DNA of 64,000 nt from Bacteroidales bacterium (GCA_017443465.1 JAFRXO010000067.1:9467-73466); one strand, 5' to 3'. Shown: positions 31,641-52,420, counted from the stretch's first letter. Notes: generated by a model from the letters alone, not told the origin. Numbers and translations are program-made.

Positions 31641-31683
31641 AGTTTTGTGGTTTATATGGTTCGTGTATTTGAAGTCGTAATGA

Positions 31684-31691
31684 CAAATGTA
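31684..31691 (-). promoter_or_regulatory. -7 promoter box for Gfo/Idh/MocA gene
   Basis: TACATTTG on minus strand. Confidence 0.5.
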
Positions 31692-33602: not shown

Positions 33603-33605
33603 ATG

Positions 33606-35525: not shown

Positions 35526-35528
35526 GGT

Positions 35529-37445: not shown

Positions 37446-37482
37446 CGCTTTTTGTAAATATATGATTGATAATATGATAATG

Positions 37483-38355
37483 TCAGTATTTGTAGCCGCG
37501 TGACTTGTACAGGAGCTTGCCGAATTCCAGGATGTTCAAGGCTATGATGTCCGGATTGACATCGGAGGCTTCAGCAACTTCCAAAGTGGTTTCACCGCTT
37601 AGGACCAGGACTCCGAGGTTACCTGCATTGAGCCCGGCAGCGACATCGGTGTAGATCCTGTCCCCGACCATGGCGATCTCATCGCTCTTGAGGCCGAGGC
37701 TGTCCCTCAGGGTGTAGAGCATTATGGGATTGGGTTTCCCTATGACGGCATCAGGCAACCTCTTCGTAGCCCCCTCGATGCATCGTGTCAGGGATCCGCA
37801 GTCGATCAGGATGGTTTCCTGGTCAGTAGGGCACACCCAGTCCGGATTGGTGGCGATGTAAGGTATCTCCTTCTTTGACGCCCACCATGCCGCTCGGCAG
37901 AAGCGCTCATATGTAAGCGTGGTATCGAACGCGACCACTAGCATGTCCGGCCTGTCGGAAGGATCGTCCAGGGTCAGTTCGAAGCCGGCCTTGCGGAACT
38001 CCGCCTGCATGCTCGGAGTTCCGAGGGCATATATCCTTTTCACTCCGGGGTAATGCTGACGGATGTAGTCGATAGTCGCAATGGAGCTCGTATACATCTG
38101 CTGGTCAGATGCTTCTATTCCAAGGTTCTGCAACTTCCGCAGATAATCCCCTCGGTTTTTCGTGGGGTTGTTGGTCAGGAACGAGTAACTGATACCCAAT
38201 GCGGTCAGCATTTCCAGGAAAGCATGGGTGTAGGGGAACAGGGTAGAACCCATATATATGGTTCCGTCCATGTCTAGGGCCACATGCTTGATTTTGGAGC
38301 AGGCCGCCATGAGCTGGCGCTCCGTCATGGGCGTAGAGTATTTGTCGAAAGGCAT
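37483..38355 (-). CDS. HAD-IIA (NagD-like) phosphatase
   Basis: DMDGT, TNN, ATNPD, GKPNP, VGDRIYTD. Confidence 0.92.
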   Translation of the reverse strand: MPFDKYSTPMTERQLMAACSKIKHVALDMDGTIYMGSTLFPYTHAFLEMLTALGISYSFLTNNPTKNRGDYLRKLQNLGIEASDQQMYTSSIATIDYIRQHYPGVKRIYALGTPSMQAEFRKAGFELTLDDPSDRPDMLVVAFDTTLTYERFCRAAWWASKKEIPYIATNPDWVCPTDQETILIDCGSLTRCIEGATKRLPDAVIGKPNPIMLYTLRDSLGLKSDEIAMVGDRIYTDVAAGLNAGNLGVLVLSGETTLEVAEASDVNPDIIALNILEFGKLLYKSRGYKY

Positions 38356-38357
38356 GG

Positions 38358-39176
38358 TTAAAGAGTAAGTTCCCTGTCTCCCAGGAGTTTCCGTACAAGG
38401 AGCGGCTCGTTAGTAGTGATGCAGTCCACCCCGAGGTCAATCATCGCCTTGATGTCTTCTTCTTTATTGACTGTCCAGCAGTTGACACTCATCCCCAGGG
38501 CGTGGGCTTCCGCGACCCATTCAGGATGATTTTTCAGTACGTTGAAATGATAGTCCAAGCCATTGATTCCGTCCTTCTTCAGGTCTTTTGGGGAGATGTC
38601 ACCATTGAGGTACTGGTTCGTGAACTCAGGGTATTTCTGGGCTATGACATCGCACATATGCTTGCTGAAGGAGATGAAAATGACCTTTGAAGGGTCGAAG
38701 AGACCATGGCGCTTGAGAGACCTGACGCTCTTGCTGATGAGCAGGTCTTCGCTGCGGTATTTCTCCGGCTTGAGCTCGAAGACGAGCACGGTCTTGTCGT
38801 TAGCTTTCCCCTGTTTCAGGTACTGGTTCAGCGTCGAGGGCCATTCCCCGTTCTTGAGCCGGCAGGCCTGGACGCTCTTGAAATACCTCAGTTTCGTCTG
38901 CTCGATTTCTTTCCCGCCGCGAGTATTGTCATGATTGATCAGAATCTTATTGTCGGCTGTGAGATGTGCATCGAACTCAGAGCCCCACAAGCCCGCGTTC
39001 TGTGCCTCGCGGAGCGAAGCGATGGAATTTTCGGAATTGCCAGCGGCCTCGCATTTCCAGAAGCCGCGGTGGGCGGTGATTGCGATTTTATTCTGCGCTC
39101 CGGCACCTGCGGAGAAAAGGAGGATCATTGAAGCGGCGAACACGGTCCGGATCAAGGAGTTAATGTGATTAGTCAT
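38358..39176 (-). CDS. Glycerophosphodiester phosphodiesterase (exported)
   Basis: AHRG, ENS, EFD, ELK, WTVN, TTNEP; signal peptide. Confidence 0.92.
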   Translation of the reverse strand: MTNHINSLIRTVFAASMILLFSAGAGAQNKIAITAHRGFWKCEAAGNSENSIASLREAQNAGLWGSEFDAHLTADNKILINHDNTRGGKEIEQTKLRYFKSVQACRLKNGEWPSTLNQYLKQGKANDKTVLVFELKPEKYRSEDLLISKSVRSLKRHGLFDPSKVIFISFSKHMCDVIAQKYPEFTNQYLNGDISPKDLKKDGINGLDYHFNVLKNHPEWVAEAHALGMSVNCWTVNKEEDIKAMIDLGVDCITTNEPLLVRKLLGDRELTL

Positions 39177-39219
39177 ATGAATGTGCTTCCTGTGTTATTG
39201 TAATAATAATTTCACCTTA

Positions 39220-39248
39220 CCAAGATAGCTATTTTTTCGTTATATTTG
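39220..39248. promoter_or_regulatory. Back-to-back divergent promoter
   Basis: ccaagatagctattttttcgtTATATTTG between divergent genes. Confidence 0.5.
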
Positions 39249-39277
39249 ACAATCACTAATTACGATAAGCACTATTA

Positions 39278-40708
39278 ATGGACAGAAGGAATTTTTTGAA
39301 GACTTCGGTAGCGGCGACAGCCCTCGCAAGTCTGGACTTCCCCGCATTGGCGTCAAAGGTGAAATCCTACGGGAAAGTGAGGTTGAAAGTCGGCGTTTTA
39401 AGTGACATCCATGTAGCCAATAAGGCCACGGAGGCATGCTTTCTCAAGGCCCTGAACTATTTCAAGGAGAGGAGGGTCGATGCGGTGCTGATTGCCGGGG
39501 ACCTGATCGATGACGGTTTGATGCCCGAATACCGCGTTGTCGTTGATGACTGGTACAGCGTGTTCCCCGACGACAAGTATCCCGACGGGAAAAAGATCGA
39601 AAGGCTCATAGTCTATGGCAACCACGAAATAGAAGGGCACAAATACAAGGGCGCGAGGAGCCATCATAGCCCAGAGGTCCTTCAGCGTGATATCATTCTC
39701 CCGGTGAAGGAAAAATTCTGGGAAGAATGCTGGCATGAGAAATTCCAGCCCATATACATGAAGGAGGTGAAGGGCTACAAGTTCATCGGTGCGCACTTCG
39801 TCAACATGCAATACATCCCCGGGCTTGACGAATACATGAAATCGATCGAGGACCAGCTTCCGAAGGACAAGCCCTTCTTCTATTTCCAACATGTGCATCC
39901 CAAGGGGACTTGTTCGTCGCCTTGGGTGTGGGGAATGGACGACGGTGCGTCTACGGAGGTGTTGTCCCGCTACCCGAATGTCATAGCGTTCTCAGGTCAT
40001 TCCCACACCACGCTTACGGACGAGCGGGTCATATGGCAGGGCGCGTTCACCAGCGTAGGTACGGGCTCCCTGAAGTTCATGGTCCCGCTCGGTGGCCGCG
40101 AGAACAGCAAGGTCTTCGCCAGCACCGAGAAGGTGCCGGCACAGATGCCCGTCCTGTCCGGCAACAAAGGCCATCACGCCCAGATGATGACCGTATATGA
40201 CGACTACATCGTGCTGCAGAGGCACGAGTTCGAGAACGATGAGGATCTCGGCACATGGGTCATTCCGCTCAAAGGCAATGCTAAGCCGTACTCTTTCGAG
40301 TTGCGCGAAAAGACCGAAAAGGCTCCCCAGTTCTACGGCAATGAAAAGGTTACCGTAGGGGAGAGGGTTCCTGGAAAGGACCGTTACGGGGAGGAACAGG
40401 ACCAGGTTACGGTGGAATTCCCGGTCGCAGTTTCGCACGACGGATTTCCTCGTCCCCTTGACTACGAAGTGCAGATCGAGGAAGAAGGCGTGGATGTGTT
40501 CAAGGCCGTCCTGACCAAGAGGGTCTTCTCAAACACCTATTTCTTCGGGGAAAAGAAGGATTCCGAGCAGCCGGTCAAGTGCGTTTTCAGCGTGCGCGAG
40601 TTGCCTGTGGACAAGAAATTCCGTTTCGCTGTAAGGCCCTGCAACGGCTTCGGCCGGAAGGGCGAACCCATTTATTCAGAATTATTTCCAGAAGGGAAAT
40701 TCGCATAG
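39278..40708 (+). CDS. Tat-exported calcineurin-like metallophosphoesterase, copy 1
   Basis: MDRRNFLK; SDIH, GD, GNHE, FQH, SGHSH. Confidence 0.88.
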   Translation: MDRRNFLKTSVAATALASLDFPALASKVKSYGKVRLKVGVLSDIHVANKATEACFLKALNYFKERRVDAVLIAGDLIDDGLMPEYRVVVDDWYSVFPDDKYPDGKKIERLIVYGNHEIEGHKYKGARSHHSPEVLQRDIILPVKEKFWEECWHEKFQPIYMKEVKGYKFIGAHFVNMQYIPGLDEYMKSIEDQLPKDKPFFYFQHVHPKGTCSSPWVWGMDDGASTEVLSRYPNVIAFSGHSHTTLTDERVIWQGAFTSVGTGSLKFMVPLGGRENSKVFASTEKVPAQMPVLSGNKGHHAQMMTVYDDYIVLQRHEFENDEDLGTWVIPLKGNAKPYSFELREKTEKAPQFYGNEKVTVGERVPGKDRYGEEQDQVTVEFPVAVSHDGFPRPLDYEVQIEEEGVDVFKAVLTKRVFSNTYFFGEKKDSEQPVKCVFSVRELPVDKKFRFAVRPCNGFGRKGEPIYSELFPEGKFA

Positions 40709-40734
40709 GACAGTAACCGGTAAAGTTTTAGCAT

Positions 40735-42162
40735 ATGGACAGAAGGAATTTTTTGAAGACATCGGTTGCGGCGACGGCTCTGGCGAGCATGGATTTCCCC
40801 GCATTGGCATCTAAAGTCAAGTCTTATGGTAAAGAGAGGCTTAAAGTAGGTATTTTAAGTGACACCCATGTAATCAACGAGGCTTCTCAGAAATGCTTTA
40901 TCAAAGCCCTGAACTATTTCAAGGAGAGGAGGGTGGATGCAGTTTTGATTGCCGGCGACATGACCGACAACGGAATGATGCCCGAGTATCGTTCTGCTGT
41001 CAATGACTGGTACAGCGTGTTCCCCGACGACAAGTATCCCGACGGGAAGAAGATAGAGAGGCTCATAGTCTACGGCAACCACGAAATCGAAGGACCGACA
41101 TATGGATATGTCAAGAAGGCATATGGAGAAGAAGTCTGCAAACGTGACGCCATCGCCCCGGTCAGGGACAAATTCTGGGAAGAATGCTGGCACGAGAAAT
41201 TCGAGCCTATCTACATCAAGGATGTGAAGGGCTACAAGTTCATCGGCGCACAGTTCAACAGGGACTTCATCCCCGGACTTGACGAATTCATGAAATCGGT
41301 CGAGGACCAGCTTCCTAAGGACAAGCCGTTCTTCTACTTCCAGCATATGCACCCGAAGGGGACATGTTCGGCTCCCTGGGTGTGGGGACAGGACGACGGT
41401 TCGGTCACTGAGATATTGTCCCGCTACCCGAATGCCATCGCATTCTCCGGCCATTCCCACACTCCGCTTACGGATGACAGGGTCATATGGCAGGGCGCCT
41501 TCACCAGTGTCGGTACCGCTTCGCTGAGGTACATCATCCCGATCGGAGGGCGCGAGAACAGCAAGGTGTTCGGCACCAAGGAGAACGTACCCTCGCAGAT
41601 GCCGGTCCTCTCTGGCACCACCGGACACCATGGCCAGCTCATGACCATATATGACGACTGCATAGTGCTTTCCAGGCACGAGTTCGAGAATGACGAAGAC
41701 CTCGGAAGCTGGGTCATCCCGATCAAGGGCAATTCAAAGCCGTTGACATTCGAGGCAAGGGAAAAGACCGAGAAGGCACCCCAGTTCTTCGACTCGGCCA
41801 GGGTCACCGTCGGCGACAGGAAGCCGGGAAAGGACCGTTACGGGGTGGAGCAGGACCAGGTTACCGTGGAATTCCCCGTTGCCGTTTCCCATGACGGGCT
41901 GCCCCGTCCGCTGGATTATGAAGTGCAGGTTGAGGAAGCCGGAGTCGATGTTTACAAGGCGGTCCTGACCAAGCGCGTTTTCTCAAACACCTATTTCCTT
42001 GGTGAGAAAAAGGATTCCGAGCAGCCTGTCAAGTGTGTTTTCAGCGTGAATGAACTGCCTCTGGACAAAGAATTCCGATTCGCCGTAAGGCCCTGCAATG
42101 GCTTTGGCCGGAAGGGAGAACCCATTTATTCTGAAGTGTTTCCTGCTGGAAAATTCGCATAA
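40735..42162 (+). CDS. Tat-exported metallophosphoesterase, copy 2
   Basis: MDRRNFLK; SDTH, GD, GNHE, SGHSH. Confidence 0.88.
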   Translation: MDRRNFLKTSVAATALASMDFPALASKVKSYGKERLKVGILSDTHVINEASQKCFIKALNYFKERRVDAVLIAGDMTDNGMMPEYRSAVNDWYSVFPDDKYPDGKKIERLIVYGNHEIEGPTYGYVKKAYGEEVCKRDAIAPVRDKFWEECWHEKFEPIYIKDVKGYKFIGAQFNRDFIPGLDEFMKSVEDQLPKDKPFFYFQHMHPKGTCSAPWVWGQDDGSVTEILSRYPNAIAFSGHSHTPLTDDRVIWQGAFTSVGTASLRYIIPIGGRENSKVFGTKENVPSQMPVLSGTTGHHGQLMTIYDDCIVLSRHEFENDEDLGSWVIPIKGNSKPLTFEAREKTEKAPQFFDSARVTVGDRKPGKDRYGVEQDQVTVEFPVAVSHDGLPRPLDYEVQVEEAGVDVYKAVLTKRVFSNTYFLGEKKDSEQPVKCVFSVNELPLDKEFRFAVRPCNGFGRKGEPIYSEVFPAGKFA

Positions 42163-42175
42163 GATTTTTTGACAT

Positions 42176-43597
42176 ATGAACAGGAGAGACTTTTTGAAAG
42201 ACTCCGCGAAGATAGCTGCCGTAGCGGCAGTGTCTTCCACTACCAATGCGTTTGCAGGTACCGCTGCAGCTGAGAAGAAGGAGGAAGCCCCGGCAGCGGG
42301 GGAGGAAACTTCCGTTGCAGAAGAACTTCAGGCCCCGGAGGCTCCTCAGGAGCCGCAGCCCCAGCCTGCCGGCGGAAAACTTATCATCTCCGCTCCTATG
42401 CTGCAGAACTATGCTGAGACCAGCATGGGAGTCGCATTCGCCGTCTCCGACATGGCAAACGGTTTCGTGAGCTACAGCGAGAAACCGGACATGAGCGATG
42501 CCGTCACGGTGAAATGCGGAGGCTTCCGTGTTACCGACATGAATGACAAGGTCATGCTCGTCAGGCTTACCGGCCTGAAACCGGCGACCAAGTACTATTA
42601 CACCATAGGAGCCGACCGCATATCCTATAAGGGCGGTTATGCCATGAAGATCCTGGGTACCGAGAAGGACGAAAGGGTTTACAGTTTCCGCACTGCAGGC
42701 AAGAAGGCCGATCCGCATTTCTGCGTGATCAACGACACTCATGCGAAGTGGGAAACCTTCGACCTCCTGACAAAGAAACTGGCAGTCCTGGCGCCTTCAT
42801 GCGTCATATGGAACGGAGATGCCACCAACGTTCAGGAAGATATTGACAGCCAGGTTGAAATCTTCCTGAATCCTCCGATTGCCAGTAAGGATTTCGCCTC
42901 GGAGATTCCGTATCTCTTCAGCCCGGGGAACCACGATTCCCGCGGCATGGCCAACCGCCATATCGAAAGGGTGTGGATGTTCCGCCAGAACGAGGAGCGC
43001 AGTCCCCGGGACTGGGACCTCGGCCGCAACTTCGCGGTCAGGATGGGAAGCGTTGCCATGATCGGCCTGGACACAGCCGAAGACAAATTGGACACCAATC
43101 CTCTCTTCGCCGGTCTGTTCAGCAGCAAGGCTTACCGTGAGGCCCAGACGCTTTGGCTCAAGGATGCCCTGAAGCGTCCCGAAATAGCTTCAGCTCCGTA
43201 TCTGGTGGCATTCTGCCACATTCCCCTCTTCGATCCGGATCCGACAGCGAATCCCGGCGATGTCGCTCCTGCCGACAAGGACCCCAGGTACACGACCGAT
43301 TTCGCCCACTGGCAGCGGACCTGCGCCAACATGTGGGGACCGCTCCTGAAGAAAGCCGGATGCCAGCTGGTGATTACGGCGCACCAGCATAAATATCGTT
43401 ATGATGCTCCGGATAAGGAGCGTGGCTGGGCCCAGATCGTGGGTGGCGGTCCGCATATGCGTGAGAAGAGTTACCCGACTATAGTCGAGGGAAAGGTGGA
43501 GAACGGCAAGTTGGATATTACAGTGCACAATATATTTACCGGCCAGGTGCAGGAGACATTCTCATTTGCCCCCCGCCGCAGGCGCCGCTCGGAGTAA
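42176..43597 (+). CDS. Tat-exported purple acid phosphatase-like metallophosphoesterase with FN3-like domain
   Basis: MNRRDFLK; E/P/A linker; LTGLKPATKYYY; NDTH, NGD, PGNHD, HIP, AHQH. Confidence 0.82.
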   Translation: MNRRDFLKDSAKIAAVAAVSSTTNAFAGTAAAEKKEEAPAAGEETSVAEELQAPEAPQEPQPQPAGGKLIISAPMLQNYAETSMGVAFAVSDMANGFVSYSEKPDMSDAVTVKCGGFRVTDMNDKVMLVRLTGLKPATKYYYTIGADRISYKGGYAMKILGTEKDERVYSFRTAGKKADPHFCVINDTHAKWETFDLLTKKLAVLAPSCVIWNGDATNVQEDIDSQVEIFLNPPIASKDFASEIPYLFSPGNHDSRGMANRHIERVWMFRQNEERSPRDWDLGRNFAVRMGSVAMIGLDTAEDKLDTNPLFAGLFSSKAYREAQTLWLKDALKRPEIASAPYLVAFCHIPLFDPDPTANPGDVAPADKDPRYTTDFAHWQRTCANMWGPLLKKAGCQLVITAHQHKYRYDAPDKERGWAQIVGGGPHMREKSYPTIVEGKVENGKLDITVHNIFTGQVQETFSFAPRRRRRSE

Positions 43598-43616
43598 CCA
43601 TTAATCCAATGTACAT

Positions 43617-44606
43617 ATGAAATTGACAGTTAGATATTTCGCCTTCATCACCGCCGCACTGGTGCTTGCGGGCGGTTGTGCAAAGTCAGGCAAGACGAAT
43701 GACAAGGACAACCTCCGCCTGGTGTACTGGAACATCCAGAACGGAATGTGGGATGGTCAGGATGACGATTTCGCCCGTTTCACGGCATGGGTCGAGGCCC
43801 GCGAGCCGGACGTCTGCGTCTGGTGCGAGGCCCAGCCCATATTCAAGAGCGGGACAGCCGACTATCTCGACGACATCGATTCATGGCGCACCGATGAGCG
43901 TCTGCTCTCATTCTGGAAGGACATGGCGGCCCGCTACGGGCACAAATATGTCTTCCTGGGCGGCCACAGGGACAATTATCCCCAGATCATCACCTCCAGA
44001 TACCCGATCAAGGAAATCGCCCGGATCACCGGGACCGAAGAAGTAATCGTATCGCACGGGGCCGGATGGGCGCAGATCGAGAAGAACGGCAACACTCTGA
44101 ACATCGTGACCCTCCACACCTGGCCGCAGGCATATGCTTACGGAGTCCAGGACCGCGAGAAGAGCAAAGCCGAGCATGGCGGTGACTATTTCCGCCGGGC
44201 GGAGATGGAGTACATATGTGAGCATACCATCGGGAGCGTTGAAGGTGCCGAGAACCAGATGTGGATGATGATGGGGGACTTCAATTCCCGCTCCAGAGTC
44301 GATCAGGACACCTACAAATACGAGGAGCCGACTACTGCATATCTGGTGCACGATTACATCAGGGAGAATACCCCGTATCTTGACGTGATCCACGAGTTCT
44401 ATCCGGATAAGTTCTACACTACTACAGGAGGTCAGGCGAGGATCGATTTCGTCTATTGTACCAAACCTTTGTTCGACAGGATCAAGACTGCCAGGGTTTA
44501 CACTGACGCCTACACTGCACCGGTTCGCGACGCCAAGAAGATTTCAAACTTCTGGCATCCGTCCGACCACAGGCCTATAGTAGTGGATTTCGACCTTCAC
44601 AAGTAG
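43617..44606 (+). CDS. Endonuclease/exonuclease/phosphatase family lipoprotein
   Basis: Lipobox LAGGC; WNI, MMGDFN, RIDFVY, SDH. Confidence 0.88.
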   Translation: MKLTVRYFAFITAALVLAGGCAKSGKTNDKDNLRLVYWNIQNGMWDGQDDDFARFTAWVEAREPDVCVWCEAQPIFKSGTADYLDDIDSWRTDERLLSFWKDMAARYGHKYVFLGGHRDNYPQIITSRYPIKEIARITGTEEVIVSHGAGWAQIEKNGNTLNIVTLHTWPQAYAYGVQDREKSKAEHGGDYFRRAEMEYICEHTIGSVEGAENQMWMMMGDFNSRSRVDQDTYKYEEPTTAYLVHDYIRENTPYLDVIHEFYPDKFYTTTGGQARIDFVYCTKPLFDRIKTARVYTDAYTAPVRDAKKISNFWHPSDHRPIVVDFDLHK

Positions 44607-44610
44607 GGAC

Positions 44611-44743
44611 GGTTCCCCGGGGCTGTATGTCCTGAAAACCGTTCGCTTCGCTCATCCCTCCCACTCCTGACGGAGCGGGCCCCTCCCTCTCAACGACGCC
44701 GAGGGCGGCTACGGGTTTTCAGGGCATACAGCCCCGGGGAACC
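44611..44743. repeat. 133-bp element with 30-bp terminal inverted repeats (MITE/REPIN-like)
   Basis: ggttccccggggctgtatgtcctgaaaacc (44611-40) vs reverse complement of 44714-43: 29/30 identical. Confidence 0.85.
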
Positions 44744-45348
44744 TGATGCAAGACTTTGCGGTAGAACTCCGCTTTGTTTTCAAGTTTCATCGGATATGCC
44801 CTCGAGGAGGAAGGCATCCTGTGCCATGTCACCTTCCTGGTGCCTCTGACGGTGGGGACTGCGACGTTGATGCTGCCTCCGACCGGAGGCGTCCCTTCCG
44901 GAGCGCAGCCAAGGCGGCTGAAGATTGCCAGGAGTTCTTCCGAGGCTTTGCCTCCGGTGGTGACAATCGTGTGGCACTGAGGTATTTCCTCCAGCATGCC
45001 CGGGACATCGCTGCTGCGGACTATCTCCAGGAATGCATCGCTGGCATTGCCTTTCAACCGGCGGACCGTCCTGGCCGTGTCGTAGAAGGCAAAGCACTCT
45101 TTACGGCAGAAATCTTCAATCCGCCGCCTGTCGAACTTCTTTTCCCCGGCACACTCGAAATGCCCCCGGTCCCCGAAGAAAACCAGGCCCATTATCCTCC
45201 AGAAGTCGTTGTTGAAATTCGGGTAGAAGAAGTCCATGGACCATCTGGCCCGCGGAGGGGGGAAACTCCCCAGGAACAACACTTTGGCCCCTTCAGGCAG
45301 AAACGGTTGAAGGGGGTGGTTTTCTATGGATATCTCCTGCTCAAGCAT
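44719..45348 (-). CDS. Uracil-DNA glycosylase superfamily protein (MUG/family 6-like)
   Basis: HPLQPF, LFLGSFPP, FFYPN..NDFW, MPSSS. Confidence 0.8.
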   Translation of the reverse strand: MLEQEISIENHPLQPFLPEGAKVLFLGSFPPPRARWSMDFFYPNFNNDFWRIMGLVFFGDRGHFECAGEKKFDRRRIEDFCRKECFAFYDTARTVRRLKGNASDAFLEIVRSSDVPGMLEEIPQCHTIVTTGGKASEELLAIFSRLGCAPEGTPPVGGSINVAVPTVRGTRKVTWHRMPSSSRAYPMKLENKAEFYRKVLHQVPRGCMP

Positions 45349-45353
45349 GGATC

Positions 45354-46481
45354 CTACAGCTCGTAAGCCTTGGCTTCAAGCCGCTTGATACGGGTCTCGC
45401 CAAGAGCCTTTATGCTGATGGAGGGGGCCGTCTTGTAGAGCCTCAGGCCAAGTACCTCGCGGCCCTGCTCCGTATGGTTGAAAGCATATTTCCGGTTCCC
45501 GGGCATAGTCACTTCGATGGAGCCTGTGAAGTCCAGGTAGAGAGTGAGCGCGGCGAAATCCGGCGATGCGGCCGCAGTCCACTCGAACCCCTGGCCACCG
45601 TCGAGGGAGAGCTTCTTGCAGGTTTTCGAGTCATATGCCTGTCTTCCCTCGTCCTGGTGCCACCAGAAGTCGCTGAGCTGGATCGTCACTCCGTCCATTG
45701 CCGCCCTCTGCTCCTTAGGTGTCGGGAAGATCGAGGCCTGCACTTCGCATCCTGCGGCTTTCAGGGAGTCTATGTATGGCTTGATAAGCATGTCGTGTTT
45801 CATGGTGCTCAGGCCGAAACGTCCTCCGAAGGAAGAGGCGTTTTCGATTGCGGTCTCAGCCGGAACGCGTCCGGGATCCAGGAGGATCAGGCAGTTTGAA
45901 AATGAGCGGATCTCATCCAGAGGCTTTTTGCTGGATGAAAAGCCTATCCAGTTGTCTCCGAGGATTTCCTGGGCCAGCCTGTAGGACTCCACGATGGCGC
46001 TGTGAAGCATCGGGACGATCCCGTACTCCTTGCAGGCCTCCAGCTCCTCACGGAAAGTCGGAATAGGAGTCCTCAGGGCCGGGTCGGTGGATTCCAGGAC
46101 ATATCCGGAGCGAAGCTGCTCATATGTCAGGTCCTTCACATAGACCGGTCCCTCTATCGGGGAGTAGTCGGATGCATTGCGCATCGTCCTGTTGATGGTG
46201 GCGTCATGCATGATGACCATTACGCTGTCGAGGGTGTACTTTACGTCGCACTCGATTGCGGGGTAGCCGTAGCGGGCGGCCATCTTGACTCCTGCAGGAC
46301 AGTTCTCATTGATATAGAATTCGTTCCCCGCCTTGAGCCAGCATCCCCTGTGGGCTACGGCCTCCGGGAGGGGCACTTTTTTGCTTTGGCTGCAGGGGAA
46401 AGACACGTTCATGCTCTGGCTGCAGGATACTGTGATGGAGAGAGCGATTATGGCTCCGGCGATGACATTATGAAGTTTCAT
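45354..46481 (-). CDS. Glycerophosphodiester phosphodiesterase lipoprotein with C-terminal extension
   Basis: Lipobox TVSC; AHRG, NEN, IECD, MHD.TI.RT. Confidence 0.8.
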   Translation of the reverse strand: MKLHNVIAGAIIALSITVSCSQSMNVSFPCSQSKKVPLPEAVAHRGCWLKAGNEFYINENCPAGVKMAARYGYPAIECDVKYTLDSVMVIMHDATINRTMRNASDYSPIEGPVYVKDLTYEQLRSGYVLESTDPALRTPIPTFREELEACKEYGIVPMLHSAIVESYRLAQEILGDNWIGFSSSKKPLDEIRSFSNCLILLDPGRVPAETAIENASSFGGRFGLSTMKHDMLIKPYIDSLKAAGCEVQASIFPTPKEQRAAMDGVTIQLSDFWWHQDEGRQAYDSKTCKKLSLDGGQGFEWTAAASPDFAALTLYLDFTGSIEVTMPGNRKYAFNHTEQGREVLGLRLYKTAPSISIKALGETRIKRLEAKAYEL

Positions 46482-46513
46482 TGAAAAACAAGATTAGGAT
46501 TCATTCTTCAAAC

Positions 46514-46550
46514 AGAGTAAAGATAGCCTTTTTTTTCATATCTTTACTCT
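46514..46550. promoter_or_regulatory. Palindromic bidirectional promoter/operator
   Basis: AGAGTAAAGATA-N13-TATCTTTACTCT perfect 12-bp inverted repeat; TATCTTTA on both strands. Confidence 0.65.
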
Positions 46551-46574
46551 TTGTCTAGATAACACTGAGCTAAA

Positions 46575-49208
46575 ATGAAATCGATCGTATGTCTTGCTGC
46601 GGCAATGCTCTCTGTTGCCGTTTCCTGTTCGAAGTCCTCCCTCGTCCCCGTCAACCTGAGGGTCGAATCCATGGAAGAGCCCAACTGCATAGATGTTACC
46701 TCTCCCAGGCTTACGTGGGTTGACAATCCGGTCTCGGACAAGGTCTGCAACGAGAGCCAAAGCGCTTACAGGATTGTAGTGGCATCGTCACTCAAAGACC
46801 TGCGCTCAGGGAAGAATCTGCTCTGGGACACCGGAAAGACAGATTCCCCGTGCGCTTTGAGAATAAACTACGGCGGGAAGCCGCTTTCCAGCGGGCAGGA
46901 CTGCTGGTGGAAAGTAATGGTCTGGGACAGCAAGGGAAAGGCATCTGCCTGGAGCCGTCCGGGTCATTGGACCATGGGAATGATGGATCCAGGGCAGTGG
47001 AAAGCATCCTGGATCGGGGCTCCTTACCAGAGAGAAGAGTCCGACACTGTGGACCAGCCTGCACCCATGTTCCGGAAAGAGTTCAATGTCAGCAAGAAAG
47101 TAAAGTCAGCCAAGGCCTTCGTCTGTGGCCTGGGCTTCTTCGAAATGTTCCTCAACGGCCAGAGGATAGGGGATGACCGCCTGGTTCCGAACCTCACCGG
47201 ATACACCTCCAGGAAAGACCTTGACAAGGTGTTCATCGCACTCAAGGATCATTTCAGGGGTTACAGGGTGACCTATCTGGTGTACGATGTCACAAAAGAC
47301 CTGAAAGTCGGGGAGAATGCCGCCGGAGTCATAGTCGGAGCCGGCTTCTACAACACCCACTGGGAGAGATGGACAAAGGCTTTCGGGTCCCAGAGGCTGC
47401 TTTGCCAGATAATGATAGAATATGAGGACGGCGAAAAGGAGACTGTGGTCTCGGATACTTCCTGGAAATCAGCTCCTTCCGCCATTACATTGAATGACAT
47501 TTATCACGGGGAGACATATGACGCCAGGCTCGAACATCCGGGCTGGACGACAGTGGGATATGATGACTCCTCCTGGGCGAACGCGGTTCCTCGAGTCGCT
47601 CCGGAAGGAAAACTCCGTGCTTCTGACGCACCTCTCGACAGGATCACCGGGACCCTGGAACCCAAATCGCTTACCAAGAATCCGGATGGAAGTTACGAAG
47701 TGGATTTCGGGACCGAGATTTCCGGCTGGATCCATTTCAAGGACATGACCGGAAAGGCGGGAGACACCCTCAGGGTCAAATTCATATGTGAATCCAAGGA
47801 AGGGGACCAGCTTTACGTGTTCAAAGACTCCAATCCGGTTTCATATGCTCCAAGGTTCACCTGGTTCGTCTTCAGCAAAGCCAGGATAACCGGCATCGAA
47901 ACGCTCTCGGAGAAGAATCTCGTCGCGGAAGCAGTCAACAACGACGTCAGGATAGATTCCCGCTTCGAGACGTCGGTCGGCCTGCTTGACAGCATCAATA
48001 TCATATGGAGACGTTCCCAGATGGACAACATGCACGGAGGCATAGCCAGCGACTGTCCGCACAGGGAGCGTTCCCCGTACACCGGCGACGGGCAGGTCTC
48101 CTGTGCTACAGTAATGTCCAATTTCGATGCGGAGGCCTTCTACCGCAAATGGATCAGGGATATGAATGACACCCAGGACGTGGAGACCGGCTATGTTCCG
48201 AATTCTGCTCCATGGCAGCCGGGATGCGGCGGCGGAGTAGGCTGGGGTGCGGCCATGGATATCATCCCGTGGGAGCACTACAGGCATTATGCTGACGTGG
48301 AAATCCTGAAGGATAATTATTTCGCGATGAAGGAGCAGGTCCGTCATATGGAAGGCTGGATCACTCCCGACGGGACGATGTTCCAGAAGATGACGGATGT
48401 CATTAGTGGAAGCTGGCAGAAGTGGTTCAATCTCGGGGACTGGGCCCCTGCATATGGTCTTCCTTCAGATGAACTGGTCCACACTTTCTACCTGTGGTAT
48501 TGCGCTGACATAGTGGCCAAGGCCTCCAGGGTTGTCGGAACCAGAGAGGACACAGACTATTACAGGGGACTTGCCGAACGGACTAGGGACGCCTTCATGA
48601 AGAAGTTCTACGATCCCGAGGCCAAGTCATTCGGAGAATATGGATCCAATGTCCTGGCGCTCAAGATGGGGGTCCCGGATGAAATCCGTGCCGATGTAGT
48701 TGAGACCCTCCGGAATGAGATAGGGGTAAAATACAACGGCCATCTCAACACCGGTATTTTCGGGACGCGCTTCCTCTTCGAGGTCCTGGCGGATAACGGC
48801 CTCAACGACCTGGCCTTCAAGGTTATCACCCAGAGGGATTTCCCGAGCTTCGGGCATTGGCTGGCCCAGGGCGCCACTACTACCTGGGAAATGTGGGACG
48901 GGAGCAACTCCCGCAACCACCCCATGTTCGGCGGAGGACTCATATGGTTCTATGAAAAACTTGCCGGGGTACAGATAGATGAAAAGGAGCCCGGATACAG
49001 GCATATCATAGTAGAGCCGCTTCCGGCAGCCGGACTGGAGAGGGTTGTGTATTCCAAGGAAACACCTTATGGTACAGTTGTTTCCGAAGTCAGGAATACT
49101 CCTGACGGCCTTTCCCTTGACCTTACGGTACCGGTCGGAAGCTATGCGACGGTCACCCTCCCCGGGAAGGAAAGCAAGACTGTAGGACAGGGCAAATGGC
49201 ATTTTTAA
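46575..49208 (+). CDS. GH78 alpha-L-rhamnosidase-family lipoprotein
   Basis: Lipobox AVSC; LWDTGK, GE.YDAR, SDCPHRER..YTGDG, TTTWE.W, NHPMFGG. Confidence 0.9.
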   Translation: MKSIVCLAAAMLSVAVSCSKSSLVPVNLRVESMEEPNCIDVTSPRLTWVDNPVSDKVCNESQSAYRIVVASSLKDLRSGKNLLWDTGKTDSPCALRINYGGKPLSSGQDCWWKVMVWDSKGKASAWSRPGHWTMGMMDPGQWKASWIGAPYQREESDTVDQPAPMFRKEFNVSKKVKSAKAFVCGLGFFEMFLNGQRIGDDRLVPNLTGYTSRKDLDKVFIALKDHFRGYRVTYLVYDVTKDLKVGENAAGVIVGAGFYNTHWERWTKAFGSQRLLCQIMIEYEDGEKETVVSDTSWKSAPSAITLNDIYHGETYDARLEHPGWTTVGYDDSSWANAVPRVAPEGKLRASDAPLDRITGTLEPKSLTKNPDGSYEVDFGTEISGWIHFKDMTGKAGDTLRVKFICESKEGDQLYVFKDSNPVSYAPRFTWFVFSKARITGIETLSEKNLVAEAVNNDVRIDSRFETSVGLLDSINIIWRRSQMDNMHGGIASDCPHRERSPYTGDGQVSCATVMSNFDAEAFYRKWIRDMNDTQDVETGYVPNSAPWQPGCGGGVGWGAAMDIIPWEHYRHYADVEILKDNYFAMKEQVRHMEGWITPDGTMFQKMTDVISGSWQKWFNLGDWAPAYGLPSDELVHTFYLWYCADIVAKASRVVGTREDTDYYRGLAERTRDAFMKKFYDPEAKSFGEYGSNVLALKMGVPDEIRADVVETLRNEIGVKYNGHLNTGIFGTRFLFEVLADNGLNDLAFKVITQRDFPSFGHWLAQGATTTWEMWDGSNSRNHPMFGGGLIWFYEKLAGVQIDEKEPGYRHIIVEPLPAAGLERVVYSKETPYGTVVSEVRNTPDGLSLDLTVPVGSYATVTLPGKESKTVGQGKWHF

Positions 49209-49223
49209 TATTTTGAGCGGGTA

Positions 49224-50603
49224 ATGGACGCGGCGACTACGAAAAGGTATCATCTGTGGGAATGGCGGACTATCATCGTGTTGATGATAGGATATGCCCT
49301 TTTCTACTTTGTCAGGAAGAATCTCAGCATGGCCATTCCGGCCATGGAGGCGGAACTGGGGCTGAGCAAGGTCCAGCTCGGTATATTCATGACTCTCAAC
49401 GGAGTCATATACGGGGCGTCGAGGTTTGTGAACGGCATGCTGGTCGACAGGTTCAGCCGCCGCAAGATAATGTCGCTCGGACTCCTGCTTTCGTGCATAG
49501 TCAACTTCATAATTGCCTTCAGCCCGAAGATGAACGGATTCATGCACCTTCTCGATTCGGAAGGAAAGGCAACCATGGGCCTGGTTTACCTGATCGGCTC
49601 CCTCTGGCTGGTCAACGGCTACCTGCAGGGAATGGGAGTGCCGCCTTGCGTAAGCCTTCTTTCCCATTGGGTCCGTCCGAAGGAGCTCCCGACGAAACAG
49701 GCCATATGGAACACCTCGCACAGCGTCGGGGCCGGACTGGTGCTGCTTCTGTGCGGATTCCTGCTGAAACGCTTCGGCTACAGTGCCTGGAATCTCTGCT
49801 TCATAGTCCCTGCCGCCATAGCCTTGGTGGGAGTTCCGGTGATCTTCTTCGGAGTCAAGGATGATCCCTCTCTGGTCGGGCTTCCCCCGGTGGACAAGAT
49901 GGATGATGCTGACGGAAAACCCGCTTCGAGTGAGAAGCCTCTCAGCAAGGCCTTGCAGGACAGGATAATGGTGAAGATGGTCTTCGCCAATCCCATCCTC
50001 TGGACCATCGCCCTCGCCAACTTCTGCATGAACGTGATCAGGGGAACGATCCTGGACTGGGGAGGCACTTTCCTGGTGCAGGACAAGGGCCTTGAAATCT
50101 CCATGGCCGGAACCGTGATGGGCTCTTGCGAGCTCATTGGAGGCATCCTCGGAATGCTTGTCTCAGGCTGGGTCACCGACAAGTTCTTTGCCCACAGGGC
50201 TCACAGGACCTGCCTGATCTGCATGGTGATGACAACCATATGCTTCACCCTGTTCTGGGGCTGTACCGGCTTGGTTCCTGCGATCATATTCCTGATCCTC
50301 TCCGCATTTTTCATATATGGCCCGCAGGCCCTCTATGGCACCTGCGCATCCATGCAGAGCACGAAATATGCGGCTGGAACGGGCAACGGAGTCATCGGTA
50401 TCCTAGGCTATCTGAGCACTTTCATTTCAGGCATATGGTTCGGTGCCATAGCTGATTCCGCCTTTGGGTGGAACAGGGTGTATGTGCTCACCATATGCTT
50501 CGGCATTCTGGGTTCGATCATAATCGCACTCATATGGAAGGTGCCTGCGACAGGATATGGAAAGGTCAACAAAATAATCGAGGAGTGGAATGAAACACAC
50601 TAA
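49224..50603 (+). CDS. MFS organophosphate:Pi antiporter (GlpT/UhpT-like)
   Basis: YALFYFVRKNLS, NGYLQGMG.PPC, IWNTSH.VGAG, LDWG, FIYGPQAL. Confidence 0.88.
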   Translation: MDAATTKRYHLWEWRTIIVLMIGYALFYFVRKNLSMAIPAMEAELGLSKVQLGIFMTLNGVIYGASRFVNGMLVDRFSRRKIMSLGLLLSCIVNFIIAFSPKMNGFMHLLDSEGKATMGLVYLIGSLWLVNGYLQGMGVPPCVSLLSHWVRPKELPTKQAIWNTSHSVGAGLVLLLCGFLLKRFGYSAWNLCFIVPAAIALVGVPVIFFGVKDDPSLVGLPPVDKMDDADGKPASSEKPLSKALQDRIMVKMVFANPILWTIALANFCMNVIRGTILDWGGTFLVQDKGLEISMAGTVMGSCELIGGILGMLVSGWVTDKFFAHRAHRTCLICMVMTTICFTLFWGCTGLVPAIIFLILSAFFIYGPQALYGTCASMQSTKYAAGTGNGVIGILGYLSTFISGIWFGAIADSAFGWNRVYVLTICFGILGSIIIALIWKVPATGYGKVNKIIEEWNETH

Positions 50604-51306
50604 GAGACTGATCGGCCTGGACCTTGACGGAACGCTGACCCAGCACCGCAGTCCGCTCAGCCCGGAGGCCCGGGCACTGCTGGATGAACTCGGATCCAGG
50701 TACAAGATTGTGATGGTAGGGGCCGGGAACGCCCCCCGAATCTACCATCAGATGGAAGAGTATCCCATTGACATAATAGCGAATTACGGGATGCAGGAAA
50801 GCCGCATCATCGACGGGATATTTACCATCATACGGGACGACAAGGTCATTCCTGACAAGGAGTTTTTCATGAGGGAATGCAGCCGTCTCCGCGAGAAATA
50901 CGGCTACACTTCATATGTCGGCGATCCCCTGGAATTCCATGAAAGCGGGATGGTTACATTCCCTCTGCTCGGAACCGGGGCCGCTATTGAGGATAAGTTG
51001 GTTTTCGATCCGGACCGCAGGAAACGCCATGTCCTCTATCCTGAGGTGATAGAGGTTTTCAAGGACTATTCGGTCTTCGTCGGGGGCTCTTCGTCGTTCG
51101 ACATCACTCCGGCGCAGTACAACAAGTTCGACGCTATGGTCCGGTACGGCTGCGAGAACGATTATTCGGTTGAGGAGATGCTATACGTGGGCGACGACTT
51201 CGGTGAAGGAGGCGGCGACAGCCACATCCGTCTCGGAGGGATGGATTATATCCAGATCGAAGATTACCGCCAGGCTCCTTCGCAGCTCCAATTCCTGCTG
51301 GACTGA
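50590..51306 (+). CDS. HAD-IIB hydrolase (phosphomannomutase-like)
   Basis: DLDGTLT, GGSSSFDI, NK, YVGDD...GGGD. Confidence 0.82.
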   Translation: MKHTKRLIGLDLDGTLTQHRSPLSPEARALLDELGSRYKIVMVGAGNAPRIYHQMEEYPIDIIANYGMQESRIIDGIFTIIRDDKVIPDKEFFMRECSRLREKYGYTSYVGDPLEFHESGMVTFPLLGTGAAIEDKLVFDPDRRKRHVLYPEVIEVFKDYSVFVGGSSSFDITPAQYNKFDAMVRYGCENDYSVEEMLYVGDDFGEGGGDSHIRLGGMDYIQIEDYRQAPSQLQFLLD

Positions 51307-51314
51307 TTGGACTG

Positions 51315-51394
51315 TCCGGACCGGGGACCATATGGCTCCTGCACCTAAAGGTGCCCTGTACGGGAAAATGTCGCCATATGGTCCCCGGTCCGGA
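51315..51394. repeat. 80-bp palindromic element (perfect 22-bp arms, internal GCACC-TAAA-GGTGC hairpin)
   Basis: tccggaccggggaccatatggc (51315-36) / gccatatggtccccggtccgga (51373-94) between convergent stops. Confidence 0.85.
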
Positions 51395-51400
51395 GAAGGA

Positions 51401-52420
51401 TCAGTGGAAGAGCACCTTACAGACTGAAAGATTGTAGTTTCCGTCTTTCGTAGCCTTTCCCTGGTAGAACAGCCAGACACTTCCGTCTTCGTCCTGGAAG
51501 ACACCCGGGTGACCGCTCTCTCCGGCATTCCATGTGCCCGGAGCTCCGTTGGTATAAAGGAGTCCGTTGGGTTCTATGCGCTGGTAGTTGTACCCGTCCT
51601 TGGAGGTCGCCAGCCCGATCATCTGGAGTTCATGATTGTAGGCTCCTGCGTAGAACATGTACCAGAGTCCCTTATGCTTTATAACGGTAGGGGCCTCGAT
51701 GCAGTGCTGTTCCCAGGGGAAATCGGGCTTGAAGAAGGGCTCGTCAACTGACAGGAGGGTCCATTTGTCCGGGCCGTAGTCGCTGCCGTAAGGAGCCTCG
51801 GCCATTCCCAGCATCTGGACCGTCTGGGTGGTCTCGCGGGTGGCGAACATCAGGATCATCTTGTTGCCTACGCGATACACTTCAGCATCGATCGAGCGGT
51901 CGATTGACCACTTGGTGGAAGGTACAATAATGGGCTCGTCGAAGGTGTTGGTGAAGGTTATGCCGTCCTTGCTGACAGCATGCCATATGTTATTGTTGTT
52001 GTGTGCGGGTCCCCAGCGGCGCTGGTAGAACATATGTATCTGTCCGTCAATTACTTTGACGCATGGTGCGACTCCGCCCCATATGGGGTTTCCCTTGGTG
52101 TCGCGAAGGTCGAGTTCACCGACGCGGAACCAGTGGACTAGGTCGCGGCTTTCCGCTATTCCCGAATGCCATCCTTTTCTCTCGGGGGTAGCACCTTCCG
52201 GAACCCTGTCTCCGGTGTATGAAGTGATGGAATAGTACATGAGGTACCTGTCACCGTTGCGGATTACGGTAGGGTCTTTGGCGAACGGCTCTCCCGTCCT
52301 GGATGCGTCGCCGTACTGCATTTCGTCCATCGGGATGAGTTCAACCGTAGCGGGAGTTGCGGCATTTCTCTGGCATGCCGCGGCTGCGATGATAGCAAGG
52401 GATAGTAAAATCTTTTTCAT
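51401..52420 (-). CDS. Five-bladed beta-propeller glycoside hydrolase lipoprotein (GH43-like)
   Basis: Start MKKILLSLAIIAAAAC; KDPTV, IDAEV, IEAP acidic triad. Confidence 0.75.
   Translation of the reverse strand: MKKILLSLAIIAAAACQRNAATPATVELIPMDEMQYGDASRTGEPFAKDPTVIRNGDRYLMYYSITSYTGDRVPEGATPERKGWHSGIAESRDLVHWFRVGELDLRDTKGNPIWGGVAPCVKVIDGQIHMFYQRRWGPAHNNNNIWHAVSKDGITFTNTFDEPIIVPSTKWSIDRSIDAEVYRVGNKMILMFATRETTQTVQMLGMAEAPYGSDYGPDKWTLLSVDEPFFKPDFPWEQHCIEAPTVIKHKGLWYMFYAGAYNHELQMIGLATSKDGYNYQRIEPNGLLYTNGAPGTWNAGESGHPGVFQDEDGSVWLFYQGKATKDGNYNLSVCKVLFH

Follow-up and report, generated by a model that had tools for sequence, protein, structure and literature searches.

Background

In Escherichia coli, the glpT-glpQ genes couple a transporter of the organophosphate:phosphate antiporter (OPA) type to an exported enzyme of the GDPD family, and in Bacillus subtilis the GDPD GlpQ is paired with PhoD, a metal-dependent phosphodiesterase exported through the twin-arginine translocation (Tat) pathway, in the turnover of teichoic acids under phosphate starvation. 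Genes that recall both systems are combined in the locus analysed here, which lies in a 64,000-nucleotide stretch of a Bacteroidales bacterium (GCA_017443465.1, JAFRXO010000067.1:9467-73466), hereafter called the window. The locus is built of two divergent units. In the first, an operon with a GDPD (GDPD1), a HAD-IIA phosphatase and three PL33 lyases faces three Tat metallophosphoesterases (MPE1, MPE2 and a purple-acid-phosphatase (PAP)-like protein) and an EEP-family lipoprotein; in the second, a lipoprotein GDPD (GDPD2) faces a GH78 rhamnosidase, an OPA-type transporter and a HAD-IIB enzyme. We see an even chance that these genes form a phosphodiester/organophosphate salvage system serving glycan catabolism, inside a glycan-degrading island without SusC/SusD.

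GlpQ is described as acting on wall teichoic acid (PMC7086022). In Bacteroides thetaiotaomicron, BT3783, a phosphatase of the yeast-mannan polysaccharide utilisation locus (PUL), was compared by its authors to a Tdp2-type phosphodiesterase and was assayed on phosphorylated sugars and on phosphorylated mannan glycans for the release of phosphate (PMC4978465). Variants of the ribose-utilisation (rus) locus have been catalogued in Bacteroidetes by Glowacki et al. with GDPD, cpdA-type, EEPase, HAD and Tat-signal genes (bioRxiv 10.1101/574913). Characterised lyases of PL33 subfamily 1 act on hyaluronan or heparosan and those of subfamily 2 on chondroitin sulfate or gellan, as reported in PMC11848413, from which the structures 8r73, 8r6z, 8r75 and 8r70 originate.

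The window corresponds to C34:9467-73466, within an 80-kb contig of a 2.65-Mb genome (81 contigs, G+C 0.53) whose nearest public record is RUG14879, a rumen metagenome-assembled genome (MAG) labelled 'uncultured Bacteroidia bacterium'; the DNA and RNA runs in which it occurs come from bovine, sheep and other gut metagenomes. Contigs of the host genome are labelled C, congeneric genomes G, and fetched loci, mostly metagenomic, L. Domains were called from an open reading frame (ORF) listing and from Pfam and NCBIfam profile scans of the window. Eighty metagenomic loci with GDPD2 homologues were fetched and their ORFs clustered locally by BLAST; the GDPD2 family has at least 485 members, and MPE homologues number at least 866. 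Horizontal acquisition of the region was considered, and base composition gave no signal of it (G+C 0.51-0.57, against 0.53 for the genome).

Results

Comparison with described systems

Like glpT-glpQ, the locus couples an OPA-type transporter genetically to an exported GDPD, as do a second pair on contig C39 of the host genome and the metagenomic locus L067. It differs in that the transporter stands equally far from GlpT and UhpC, under every equivalog cut-off, in that GDPD2 is a lipoprotein with an additional C-terminal region, and in that the transporter operon also holds GH78 and a phosphohexomutase-like HAD-IIB. With the GlpQ/PhoD pair it shares the joint encoding of a GDPD and of Tat-exported metal-dependent phosphodiesterases, and a polyanionic phosphodiester target is possible. 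Here, however, in a Gram-negative host, the MPEs are class-III-phosphodiesterase (PDE)-like or PAP-like, and the genes keep company with those of an importer, HAD enzymes, a rhamnosidase and lyases; they probably serve carbon catabolism and not the response to phosphate starvation.

The EEP-fold enzyme recalls BT3783 at the level of fold and in being encoded in a glycan-utilisation setting, but the locus is without SusC/SusD and its glycan enzymes are others. The rus type of PUL has its counterpart on contig C24 of the host genome, where close paralogues of GDPD1 and MPE reside; in the window locus, by contrast, these genes are not accompanied by a ribokinase, a nucleoside hydrolase or SusC/SusD. 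Finally, the first PL33 protein of the operon and a 778-aa protein downstream strongly match the PL33 lyases (BT4410 and relatives, PMC11848413) and Pedobacter heparinase II, respectively, whereas an association of PL33 with phosphoesterases goes unmentioned in the available part of PMC11848413.

Sub-modules that recur in other organisms

Parts of the locus are found together again in other genomes, a recurrence that is not easily explained by chance. The commonest conserved neighbour of GDPD2 is an orthologue of HAD-IIB (57-61% identical), present in 13 of the 78 non-conspecific loci. Where examined, this orthologue is the C-terminal half of a GDPD-HAD-IIB fusion with a signal peptide, which is followed by a sodium symporter of the SSF family, GDPD2, a DUF4421 protein and a Tat GFO oxidoreductase. 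The transporter also recurs: an OPA orthologue (52%) lies immediately upstream of GDPD2 (57%) in L067, and in L068 GDPD2 is accompanied by an OPA-type transporter, a Tat MPE, a PAP2 phosphatase and a histidine acid phosphatase, L070 and L072 being assigned to the same BLAST clusters.

A rhamnosidase is linked to these phosphodiesterases more than once. In L026, a GH106 gene (Pfam) stands 3' of GDPD2 and overlaps it by 4 nt, and BLAST-clustered GH106 relatives adjoin GDPD2 or lie within three genes of it in L050, L078, L080 and L092. The five loci stand for three lineages, their GDPD2 proteins sorting into three groups with only 38-51% identity between groups. In congener G022, a GH78 gene is divergent from an MPE orthologue. 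Congener G002 has an operon (L114, G002:C48:28400-32900) of HAD-IIB, Fe-ADH_2, OPA (62%) and HAD-IIA (60%), which ties the HAD-IIA of the first unit to the transporter and HAD-IIB of the second. We take the Fe-ADH_2 family to include sn-glycerol-1-phosphate dehydrogenases, and the HAD-IIA/Fe-ADH_2 pairing is reminiscent of AraL/AraM in Bacillus subtilis. Members of the EEP family are distributed very widely; one PUL from the human gut combines a 58% homologue with two GDPDs and a GpsA-type dehydrogenase, and another homologue lies within a purine-biosynthesis operon.

The sequence-only reading of this DNA had proposed a route from exported phosphodiesterases through organophosphate import to a cytoplasmic HAD enzyme, and the GDPD2-OPA, GDPD2-HAD-IIB and HAD-IIA-OPA-HAD-IIB linkages back it. 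Its association of a rhamnosidase with phosphodiesterases likewise gains from the non-homologous GH106 beside GDPD2 in three lineages and from the GH78 beside a Tat MPE in a congener.

Two side observations concern these modules. Secreted GDPD-HAD-IIB fusions are encoded at L023:7040-8545, L025:7046-8545 and on G032:C53, and HAD-IIB matches fall in open frames of about 500 aa in 7 of the 11 congeneric species that bear HAD-IIB. The G002 operon is divergent from the gene of a 1590-aa BNR+GH2 protein.

Paralogous modules in the host genome

On C39, a paralogue of the OPA transporter (61%) is followed immediately by a GDPD2 paralogue, a GH2, a PAP-type MPE and an alginate-lyase-like gene; a CE15 esterase and a Tat MPE are encoded divergently from this set. 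A PUL on C24 has two SusC/D pairs together with paralogues of GDPD1 (72%) and MPE (81%), and from its gene content we class it as a rus variant. By sequence inspection, C24:1-24343 encodes an S1/P1-nuclease-like protein, a ribokinase, a nucleoside-hydrolase-like protein and a 615-aa protein carrying an EEP domain at its C terminus; further members of the PUL, again by inspection, are a GDPD, an esterase, a GH28-like protein, a Tat MPE, a DUF1080 protein, a transporter and a GH29-like protein.

The 2.65 Mb of the genome contain eight GDPD-family genes in all. A cluster on C9 comprises an FAD-oxidoreductase, an SSF symporter, a GDPD, a GpsA-like gene and a GDPD, and the combination of FAD-oxidoreductase, SSF and GDPD was seen again in related loci. 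A true glycerol kinase is encoded, and there are about two sulfatase-like genes; with so few of these, a locus for host glycosaminoglycan (heparan sulfate) was thought unlikely.

Operons, transcription and island context

The genes GDPD1, HAD-IIA, PL33 (three copies) and Tat-GFO form a minus-strand operon at 30288-39176, with gaps of 2, 37, 3, 3 and 51 nt. On the other side, GH78 and OPA are 15 nt apart, and the end of OPA overlaps the start of HAD-IIB by 14 nt. Four metatranscriptome runs contain 15-33% of the region's sampled words, and RNA contigs from them reach every gene at a depth of about 1-5. Contigs span the HAD-IIA/PL33 (37370-37856), PL33/PL33 (33388-33745), MPE1/MPE2 (40608-40869) and OPA/HAD-IIB (50470-50705) junctions. 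The RNA contigs show in vivo transcription, consistent with the inferred operons.

The ten domains predicted by the sequence-only reading are present, in the order and at the positions it gave, in the Pfam and NCBIfam scans, with their motifs kept. Its two-unit layout is right as to the genes and to the presence of both units; its left boundary at 37483, however, cuts the operon, which extends to 30288, and a UDG-like gene lies between the units. Its inventory, correct for the genes it named, had missed the three PL33 lyases of the operon and the heparinase II orthologue downstream. Since GH43-like, heparinase II and other heparinase-like genes and one GH28, the last two elsewhere in the window, surround it, the locus is a segment of a larger lyase-rich island.

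Conservation among close relatives

In L015, L022 and L029 the same genes stand in the same order; in L028, where GDPD2 and the UDG-like gene were compared, the identities are 86% and 77%, respectively. The copy number of MPE varies: the host genome and L029 have two copies, L015 and L022 one, and a further copy (81%) is the one in the C24 PUL. Because of this distribution, the tandem duplication is recent. Among 36 congeneric species, a full-length MPE orthologue was found in 1, GDPD2 in 5 and HAD-IIB in 11. The GDPD2 family is mostly restricted to rumen and gut MAG lineages, and no member was found in 300 order-level reference genomes at E<=1e-20.

A comparison of L029 (JAEEGL012076943.1), a nearly identical strain, with 44719-49208 of the window gave flanks 98-100% identical around GDPD2 (82%), the UDG-like gene (89%) and GH78 (93%), a hot spot of local divergence or recombination at the divergent promoter between GDPD2 and GH78.

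Gene content of the locus

GDPD1 (38358-39176, minus strand) is a secreted enzyme with a signal of the signal peptidase I type (Pfam GDPD, E 2e-23); besides its C24 paralogue, two more distant ones are present in the genome. Both GDPD1 and GDPD2 belong to PF03009 by score (84 and 54 bits; gathering cut-off 23.6) and carry the HR/ExD/HD motifs. The cytoplasmic HAD-IIA phosphatase (37483-38355, minus strand) is NagD-like, with 137 bits against TIGR01460 (cut-off 100) and a DxDGT motif in the form LDMDGTI; its PDB match is 1vjr/1pw5 (E 2.5e-55), and the glycerol-3-phosphate phosphatases 7po7 and 4i9f match more weakly.

The three tandem PL33 subfamily-1 lyases (31692-37445, minus strand; 636, 639 and 638 aa) each have a signal peptide. 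The first copy matches PDB entries 8r73, 8r6z, 8r75 and 8r70 at E 7e-230 to 1e-220, and is placed in PL33 by the alignment of its residues 20-632 to 8r73 (E 7e-230); the second and third are classed through the first, the three being mutually 61-75% identical. PL33 is expanded in this genome, with about 15 paralogues in 2.65 Mb that include genes on C56, C51, C47, C12, C40 and C62, some of them in tandem: an array of four stands behind SusC/SusD and a GH78-like gene on C56, and one of three on C51. The terminal gene of the operon (30288-31640, minus strand; Pfam) encodes a Tat-signal GFO/IDH/MocA oxidoreductase, glycoside-3-dehydrogenase-like, whose top PDB sequence matches are 8tdf and 8tdh, with the glucuronide-3-dehydrogenase 8tdi weaker.

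Between GDPD1 and MPE1, the divergent intergenic region 39177-39277 carries a Bacteroidetes-type TAnnTTTG motif at 39241 on the plus strand, and RNA contigs start inside it at 39233 and 39263; we regard it as a putative promoter. A scan for sigma-70 promoters and intrinsic terminators gave counts not above those of shuffled sequence, Bacteroidetes promoters being different.

On the plus strand, MPE1 (39278-40708, 476 aa) and MPE2 (40735-42162, 475 aa), both Tat metallophosphoesterases by Pfam, are 80% identical and consist of a class-III-phosphodiesterase-like catalytic domain and two FN3-like C-terminal domains. They are followed by the Tat PAP-like metallophosphoesterase (42176-43597, plus strand, 473 aa; Pfam Pur_ac_phosph_N and Metallophos) and by the EEP-family lipoprotein (43617-44606, plus strand, 329 aa; Pfam). 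The Tat motifs MDRRNFLK and MNRRDFLK are present, with borderline PF10518 scores of 22.6 and 21.8 bits (cut-off 22.7), and the PAP-like protein is assigned to the Tat class by TIGR01409 (18.1 against a cut-off of 16.7). None of the three exported MPEs matched the PhoD family in the Pfam scan, and PDB sequence searches with MPE1, EEP and the PAP-like protein gave no significant match. The AlphaFold2 model of MPE1 (pLDDT 91.9) has Rv0805, purple acid phosphatases and Lmo2642 as nearest folds, and that of EEP (pLDDT 90.5) ExoIII, AP endonucleases and Tdp2. These predicted folds are those of competent phosphoesterases with generic superfamily neighbours, and no substrate is fixed by them.

GDPD2 (45354-46481, minus strand, 375 aa) is covered by Pfam at residues 56-151 only and carries an additional conserved C-terminal part of about 100 aa; its residues H44, R45, E77, D79, H92 and D93 are invariant across 26 homologues. 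The GH78 alpha-L-rhamnosidase (46575-49208, plus strand, 877 aa) is a lipoprotein with all four GH78 Pfam domains (catalytic domain E 1e-73; PDB 6i60, E 2.5e-129), an assignment by domains. The MFS transporter of OPA type (49224-50603, plus strand, 459 aa; NCBIfam) has only OPA members among its best matches (PgtP, UhpC, GlpT) and scores below every cut-off (TIGR00881 273/408, GlpT 227/633, UhpC 228/564 and UhpT 146/497 bits), so that it is not classifiable as a GlpT or UhpT equivalog. The cytoplasmic HAD-IIB protein (50590-51306, plus strand, 238 aa) is placed by its PDB matches in the phosphomannomutase/alpha-phosphoglucomutase clade; it has a DLDGTL motif and scores 31.7 bits against TIGR01484, below the cut-off of 41.8, and it matches the Lactococcus alpha-phosphoglucomutase 4bnd (E 2e-12) and eukaryotic-type phosphomannomutases, phosphatase and mutase both being possible activities. 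Catalytic motifs are intact in nine enzymes (five metallophosphoesterase motifs; EEP N/E/D/N/D/H; DxDGT in both HADs).

Neighbouring genes

The UDG-superfamily gene (44719-45348, minus strand) is weakly deoxyinosine-glycosylase-like (TIGR04274, 34 bits, below the 80-bit cut-off). Its position between both units is kept in L022 and L029, and it is probably outside the pathway. Downstream of HAD-IIB and convergent with it is a GH43-like five-bladed-propeller lipoprotein gene (51401-52414, minus strand; Pfam). Its ORF was listed at 402 aa with a start at 52609 that is likely spurious, the long N-terminal extension overlapping the start of the heparinase II gene; the probable internal start is at the lipoprotein signal MKKILLSLAIIAAAAC (MKKILLSL). 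Between the two convergent genes, 51307-51400 contains a long inverted repeat whose arms measure about 21 nt (CCGGACCGGGGACCATATGGC ... GCCATATGGTCCCCGGTCCGG), a candidate repeat element or terminator for both directions.

In the segment 52479-55735, the heparinase II orthologue (52479-54815, plus strand, 778 aa; PDB 2fut/3e80, E 2.6e-260), which we take to be PL21, overlaps by 13 nt at its end the start of an EamA transporter gene. A DUF362 Fe-S protein and then a 677-aa lipoprotein without a Pfam match follow.

Discussion

Proposed salvage of phosphodiesters within glycan catabolism

In the pathway that we propose, oligomers or small diesters would arrive in the periplasm, where six exported phosphoesterases (GDPD1, GDPD2, MPE1, MPE2, the PAP-like protein and EEP) would cut phosphodiester bridges or substituents, while the GH78 lipoprotein, the three PL33 lyases and heparinase II would dismantle a rhamnose- and uronate-containing carbohydrate. 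The freed organophosphate, a sugar phosphate or glycerol phosphate, would be imported by the OPA antiporter against phosphate. In the cytoplasm HAD-IIB, and probably also HAD-IIA, would dephosphorylate or isomerise it, hydrolysis there restoring the phosphate that drives the next OPA exchange. We infer each substrate, the direction of flux and the single polymer common to phosphoesterases and glycan enzymes from the nature of the genes and their arrangement.

The strongest argument for a pathway is the existence of two layouts, one with an exported GDPD, OPA and a cytoplasmic HAD-IIB, the other with an exported GDPD-HAD-IIB fusion and a sodium/solute symporter. Both can be read as one pathway in two compartment arrangements: the monoester would be either imported intact and processed inside, or dephosphorylated outside and taken up as the free alcohol. 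SSF carriers typically transport sugars or inositol. HAD-IIB resembles phosphohexomutases, and its fused relatives go together with an SSF symporter; what is imported may therefore be the phosphate of a sugar and not that of glycerol or ribitol. A route through glycerol phosphate is possible too, given the matches of HAD-IIA to glycerol-3-phosphate phosphatases, the Fe-ADH_2 of G002 and the glycerol kinase.

Toward a glycan-borne phosphodiester point the rhamnosidase link, the GH78-OPA-HAD-IIB and GDPD1-HAD-IIA-PL33 operons, and the lyases and GH2 that recur beside paralogous and orthologous modules. As to the kind of glycan, the three PL33_1 lyases, heparinase II, the roughly 15 PL33 paralogues and the few sulfatases suggest unsulfated HexNAc-uronate or other acidic polymers, possibly microbial, and not classical wall teichoic acid. 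A bolder proposal, which we hold tentatively and consider unlikely as it stands, is that rumen Bacteroidales have here an uncharacterised pathway for feeding on anionic polymers with phosphodiester bridges from the envelopes of neighbouring microbes, for example capsules, teichoic/teichuronic-type polymers or phosphorylated rhamnans. In it, a new family of lipoprotein GDPDs would work with rhamnosidases and a phosphohexomutase-like HAD-IIB, the latter either cytoplasmic behind OPA or in a periplasmic GDPD-HAD fusion ahead of a sodium symporter; exported class-III-PDE-like enzymes and PL33 lyases would assist.

Several observations weigh against a salvage system dedicated to glycan catabolism. 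Conservation of the neighbourhood across Bacteroidales, which the sequence-only reading had offered as a check, fails for the whole two-unit locus: the complete arrangement occurs only in near-conspecific rumen contigs (79-100% protein identity), and beyond these MPE1, PAP, EEP, PL33, GH78 and HAD-IIA never adjoin GDPD2. The survey of neighbourhoods itself relies on our own ORF calls and BLAST clustering, with several family names taken from one representative each. Homologues of MPE, GDPD2 and EEP are also found beside lpxB/surE, in the purine operon or alone, housekeeping contexts that fit general-purpose scavenging.

The setting of the locus counts in the same direction. Searches with the genome's own SusC and SusD by BLAST found neither on the 80-kb contig C34, nor did the Pfam scans of the window, while the genome holds 20 SusC and 9 SusD homologues; without the adjacent SusC/SusD pair by which a PUL is defined, the locus is therefore not a canonical PUL. 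The island has no evident regulator, and the RNA evidence consists of low-depth, unstranded contigs that are silent on induction or co-regulation. In Bacteroidetes, acidic residues after the lipidated cysteine are the signal for surface export. The lipoproteins of the locus lack them, which suggests that they face the periplasm and that polymers would need import systems encoded elsewhere.

Alternative explanations

The rival that survives best is a general scavenging of small phosphoesters with no common polymer, which is possible though in our judgement on the unlikely side. GDPD2 and OPA would then handle the head groups of deacylated phospholipids in the manner of glpT-glpQ, and MPE, PAP and EEP would act in the periplasm as phosphoesterases of nucleotides or nucleic acids; the adjacency of GH78 and PL33 would be a mere clustering of exported hydrolases. 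An OPA transporter beside a periplasmic GDPD is indeed the classical layout of E. coli glpTQ. The predicted folds nearest to MPE1 are cyclic-nucleotide phosphodiesterases and those nearest to EEP nucleases; by inspection, paralogues of MPE and GDPD1 keep company with the S1/P1 nuclease, nucleoside-hydrolase-like gene and ribokinase of the C24 PUL; the EEP homologue of the purine operon, the phosphatases (PAP2 and histidine acid) around GDPD2 in L068 and the many homologues in housekeeping contexts all go the same way. However, scavenging leaves unexplained why GDPD2 (or MPE) is repeatedly paired with two unrelated rhamnosidase families, why lyases and GH2 recur beside the modules, and why OPA and HAD-IIB have GH78 in their operon. 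Moreover, a phosphohexomutase-like HAD would be superfluous if the product were ordinary sn-glycerol-3-phosphate, and phosphate is abundant in the rumen, so that phosphorus scavenging alone is a weak selective reason.

Recycling of Gram-positive wall polymers, either rhamnosylated wall teichoic acid or glycerol-phosphate-modified rhamnans of the streptococcal type, seems improbable to us. Gram-positive bacteria of the rumen are a plausible source of such polymers, the combination of a GDPD with a Tat-exported metallophosphodiesterase mirrors the GlpQ/PhoD turnover pair, and the linkage of a rhamnosidase to GDPD2 recurs. If the Fe-ADH_2 of G002 is an sn-glycerol-1-phosphate dehydrogenase, like some members of its family, it would suit the enantiomer of lipoteichoic acid; the distant PDB matches of HAD-IIA to glycerol-3-phosphate phosphatases and the glycerol kinase of the genome would fit as well. 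Yet the exported MPEs lack the PhoD-family match in the Pfam scan that a GlpQ/PhoD-type system calls for, the PL33 partners in the operon and the nearby heparinase II act on HexNAc-uronate polymers and not on teichoic acids, and the phosphohexomutase-like HAD-IIB and SSF-paired fusions favour a sugar phosphate over glycerol or ribitol phosphate. No utilisation locus of Bacteroidales for teichoic acid or phosphoglycan was found in the literature searched, and no result here points specifically to wall teichoic acid or to a rhamnan carrying glycerol phosphate.

Catabolism of inositol-phosphate glycolipid head groups of plants or eukaryotic microbes, of the glycosyl inositol phosphorylceramide (GIPC) or glycosylphosphatidylinositol (GPI) type, would have the lyases cut HexN-GlcA and GDPD/EEP cut at the phosphate of the core HexN(Ac)-alpha-1,4-GlcA-inositol-phosphate-ceramide, with inositol phosphate or inositol then imported. 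PL33_1 and heparinase II do split HexNAc-alpha-1,4-uronate bonds, related GDPD2 loci hold HGSNAT/DUF5009, GH20, NagA-like, SSF and GFO/IDH/MocA genes, and eukaryotic relatives of GDPD, EEP and metallophosphoesterases act on GPI and inositol sphingolipids, but the proposal is purely analogical and very improbable, as rhamnose is not a usual GIPC sugar, fifteen PL33 paralogues of endo-processive type are hard to justify for one bond, and the EEP model is nearest to nucleases and Tdp2, not to sphingomyelinases.

Significance

Returning to phosphodiester salvage in the service of glycan catabolism, its component families are known and the logic of transporter and GDPD is that of glpTQ. What appears undescribed in the literature searched is the lipoprotein GDPD2 family with its rhamnosidase pairing, the GDPD-HAD-IIB fusion with its compartment-swapped counterpart, and the embedding of these phosphodiester genes among PL33 lyases. 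Should the enzymes hydrolyse just small head-group diesters and nucleotides, the locus would be an ordinary glpTQ-like scavenging set.

Glycans with phosphodiesters (teichoic acids, many capsules, phosphomannans, glycolipid head groups) constitute a large reserve of biomass in the gut, both microbial and dietary, and apart from the yeast-mannan phosphatases we found no characterised Bacteroidales route for them in the same literature. If true, the reading proposed here would account for the uncharacterised GDPD, cpdA and EEPase genes of variant ribose-utilisation PULs. It would also provide concrete enzyme families and a transporter to test for the turnover of dead rumen microbial biomass, namely GDPD2 with a rhamnosidase, GDPD and HAD-IIB with OPA or SSF, and the Tat class-III-PDE-like enzymes.

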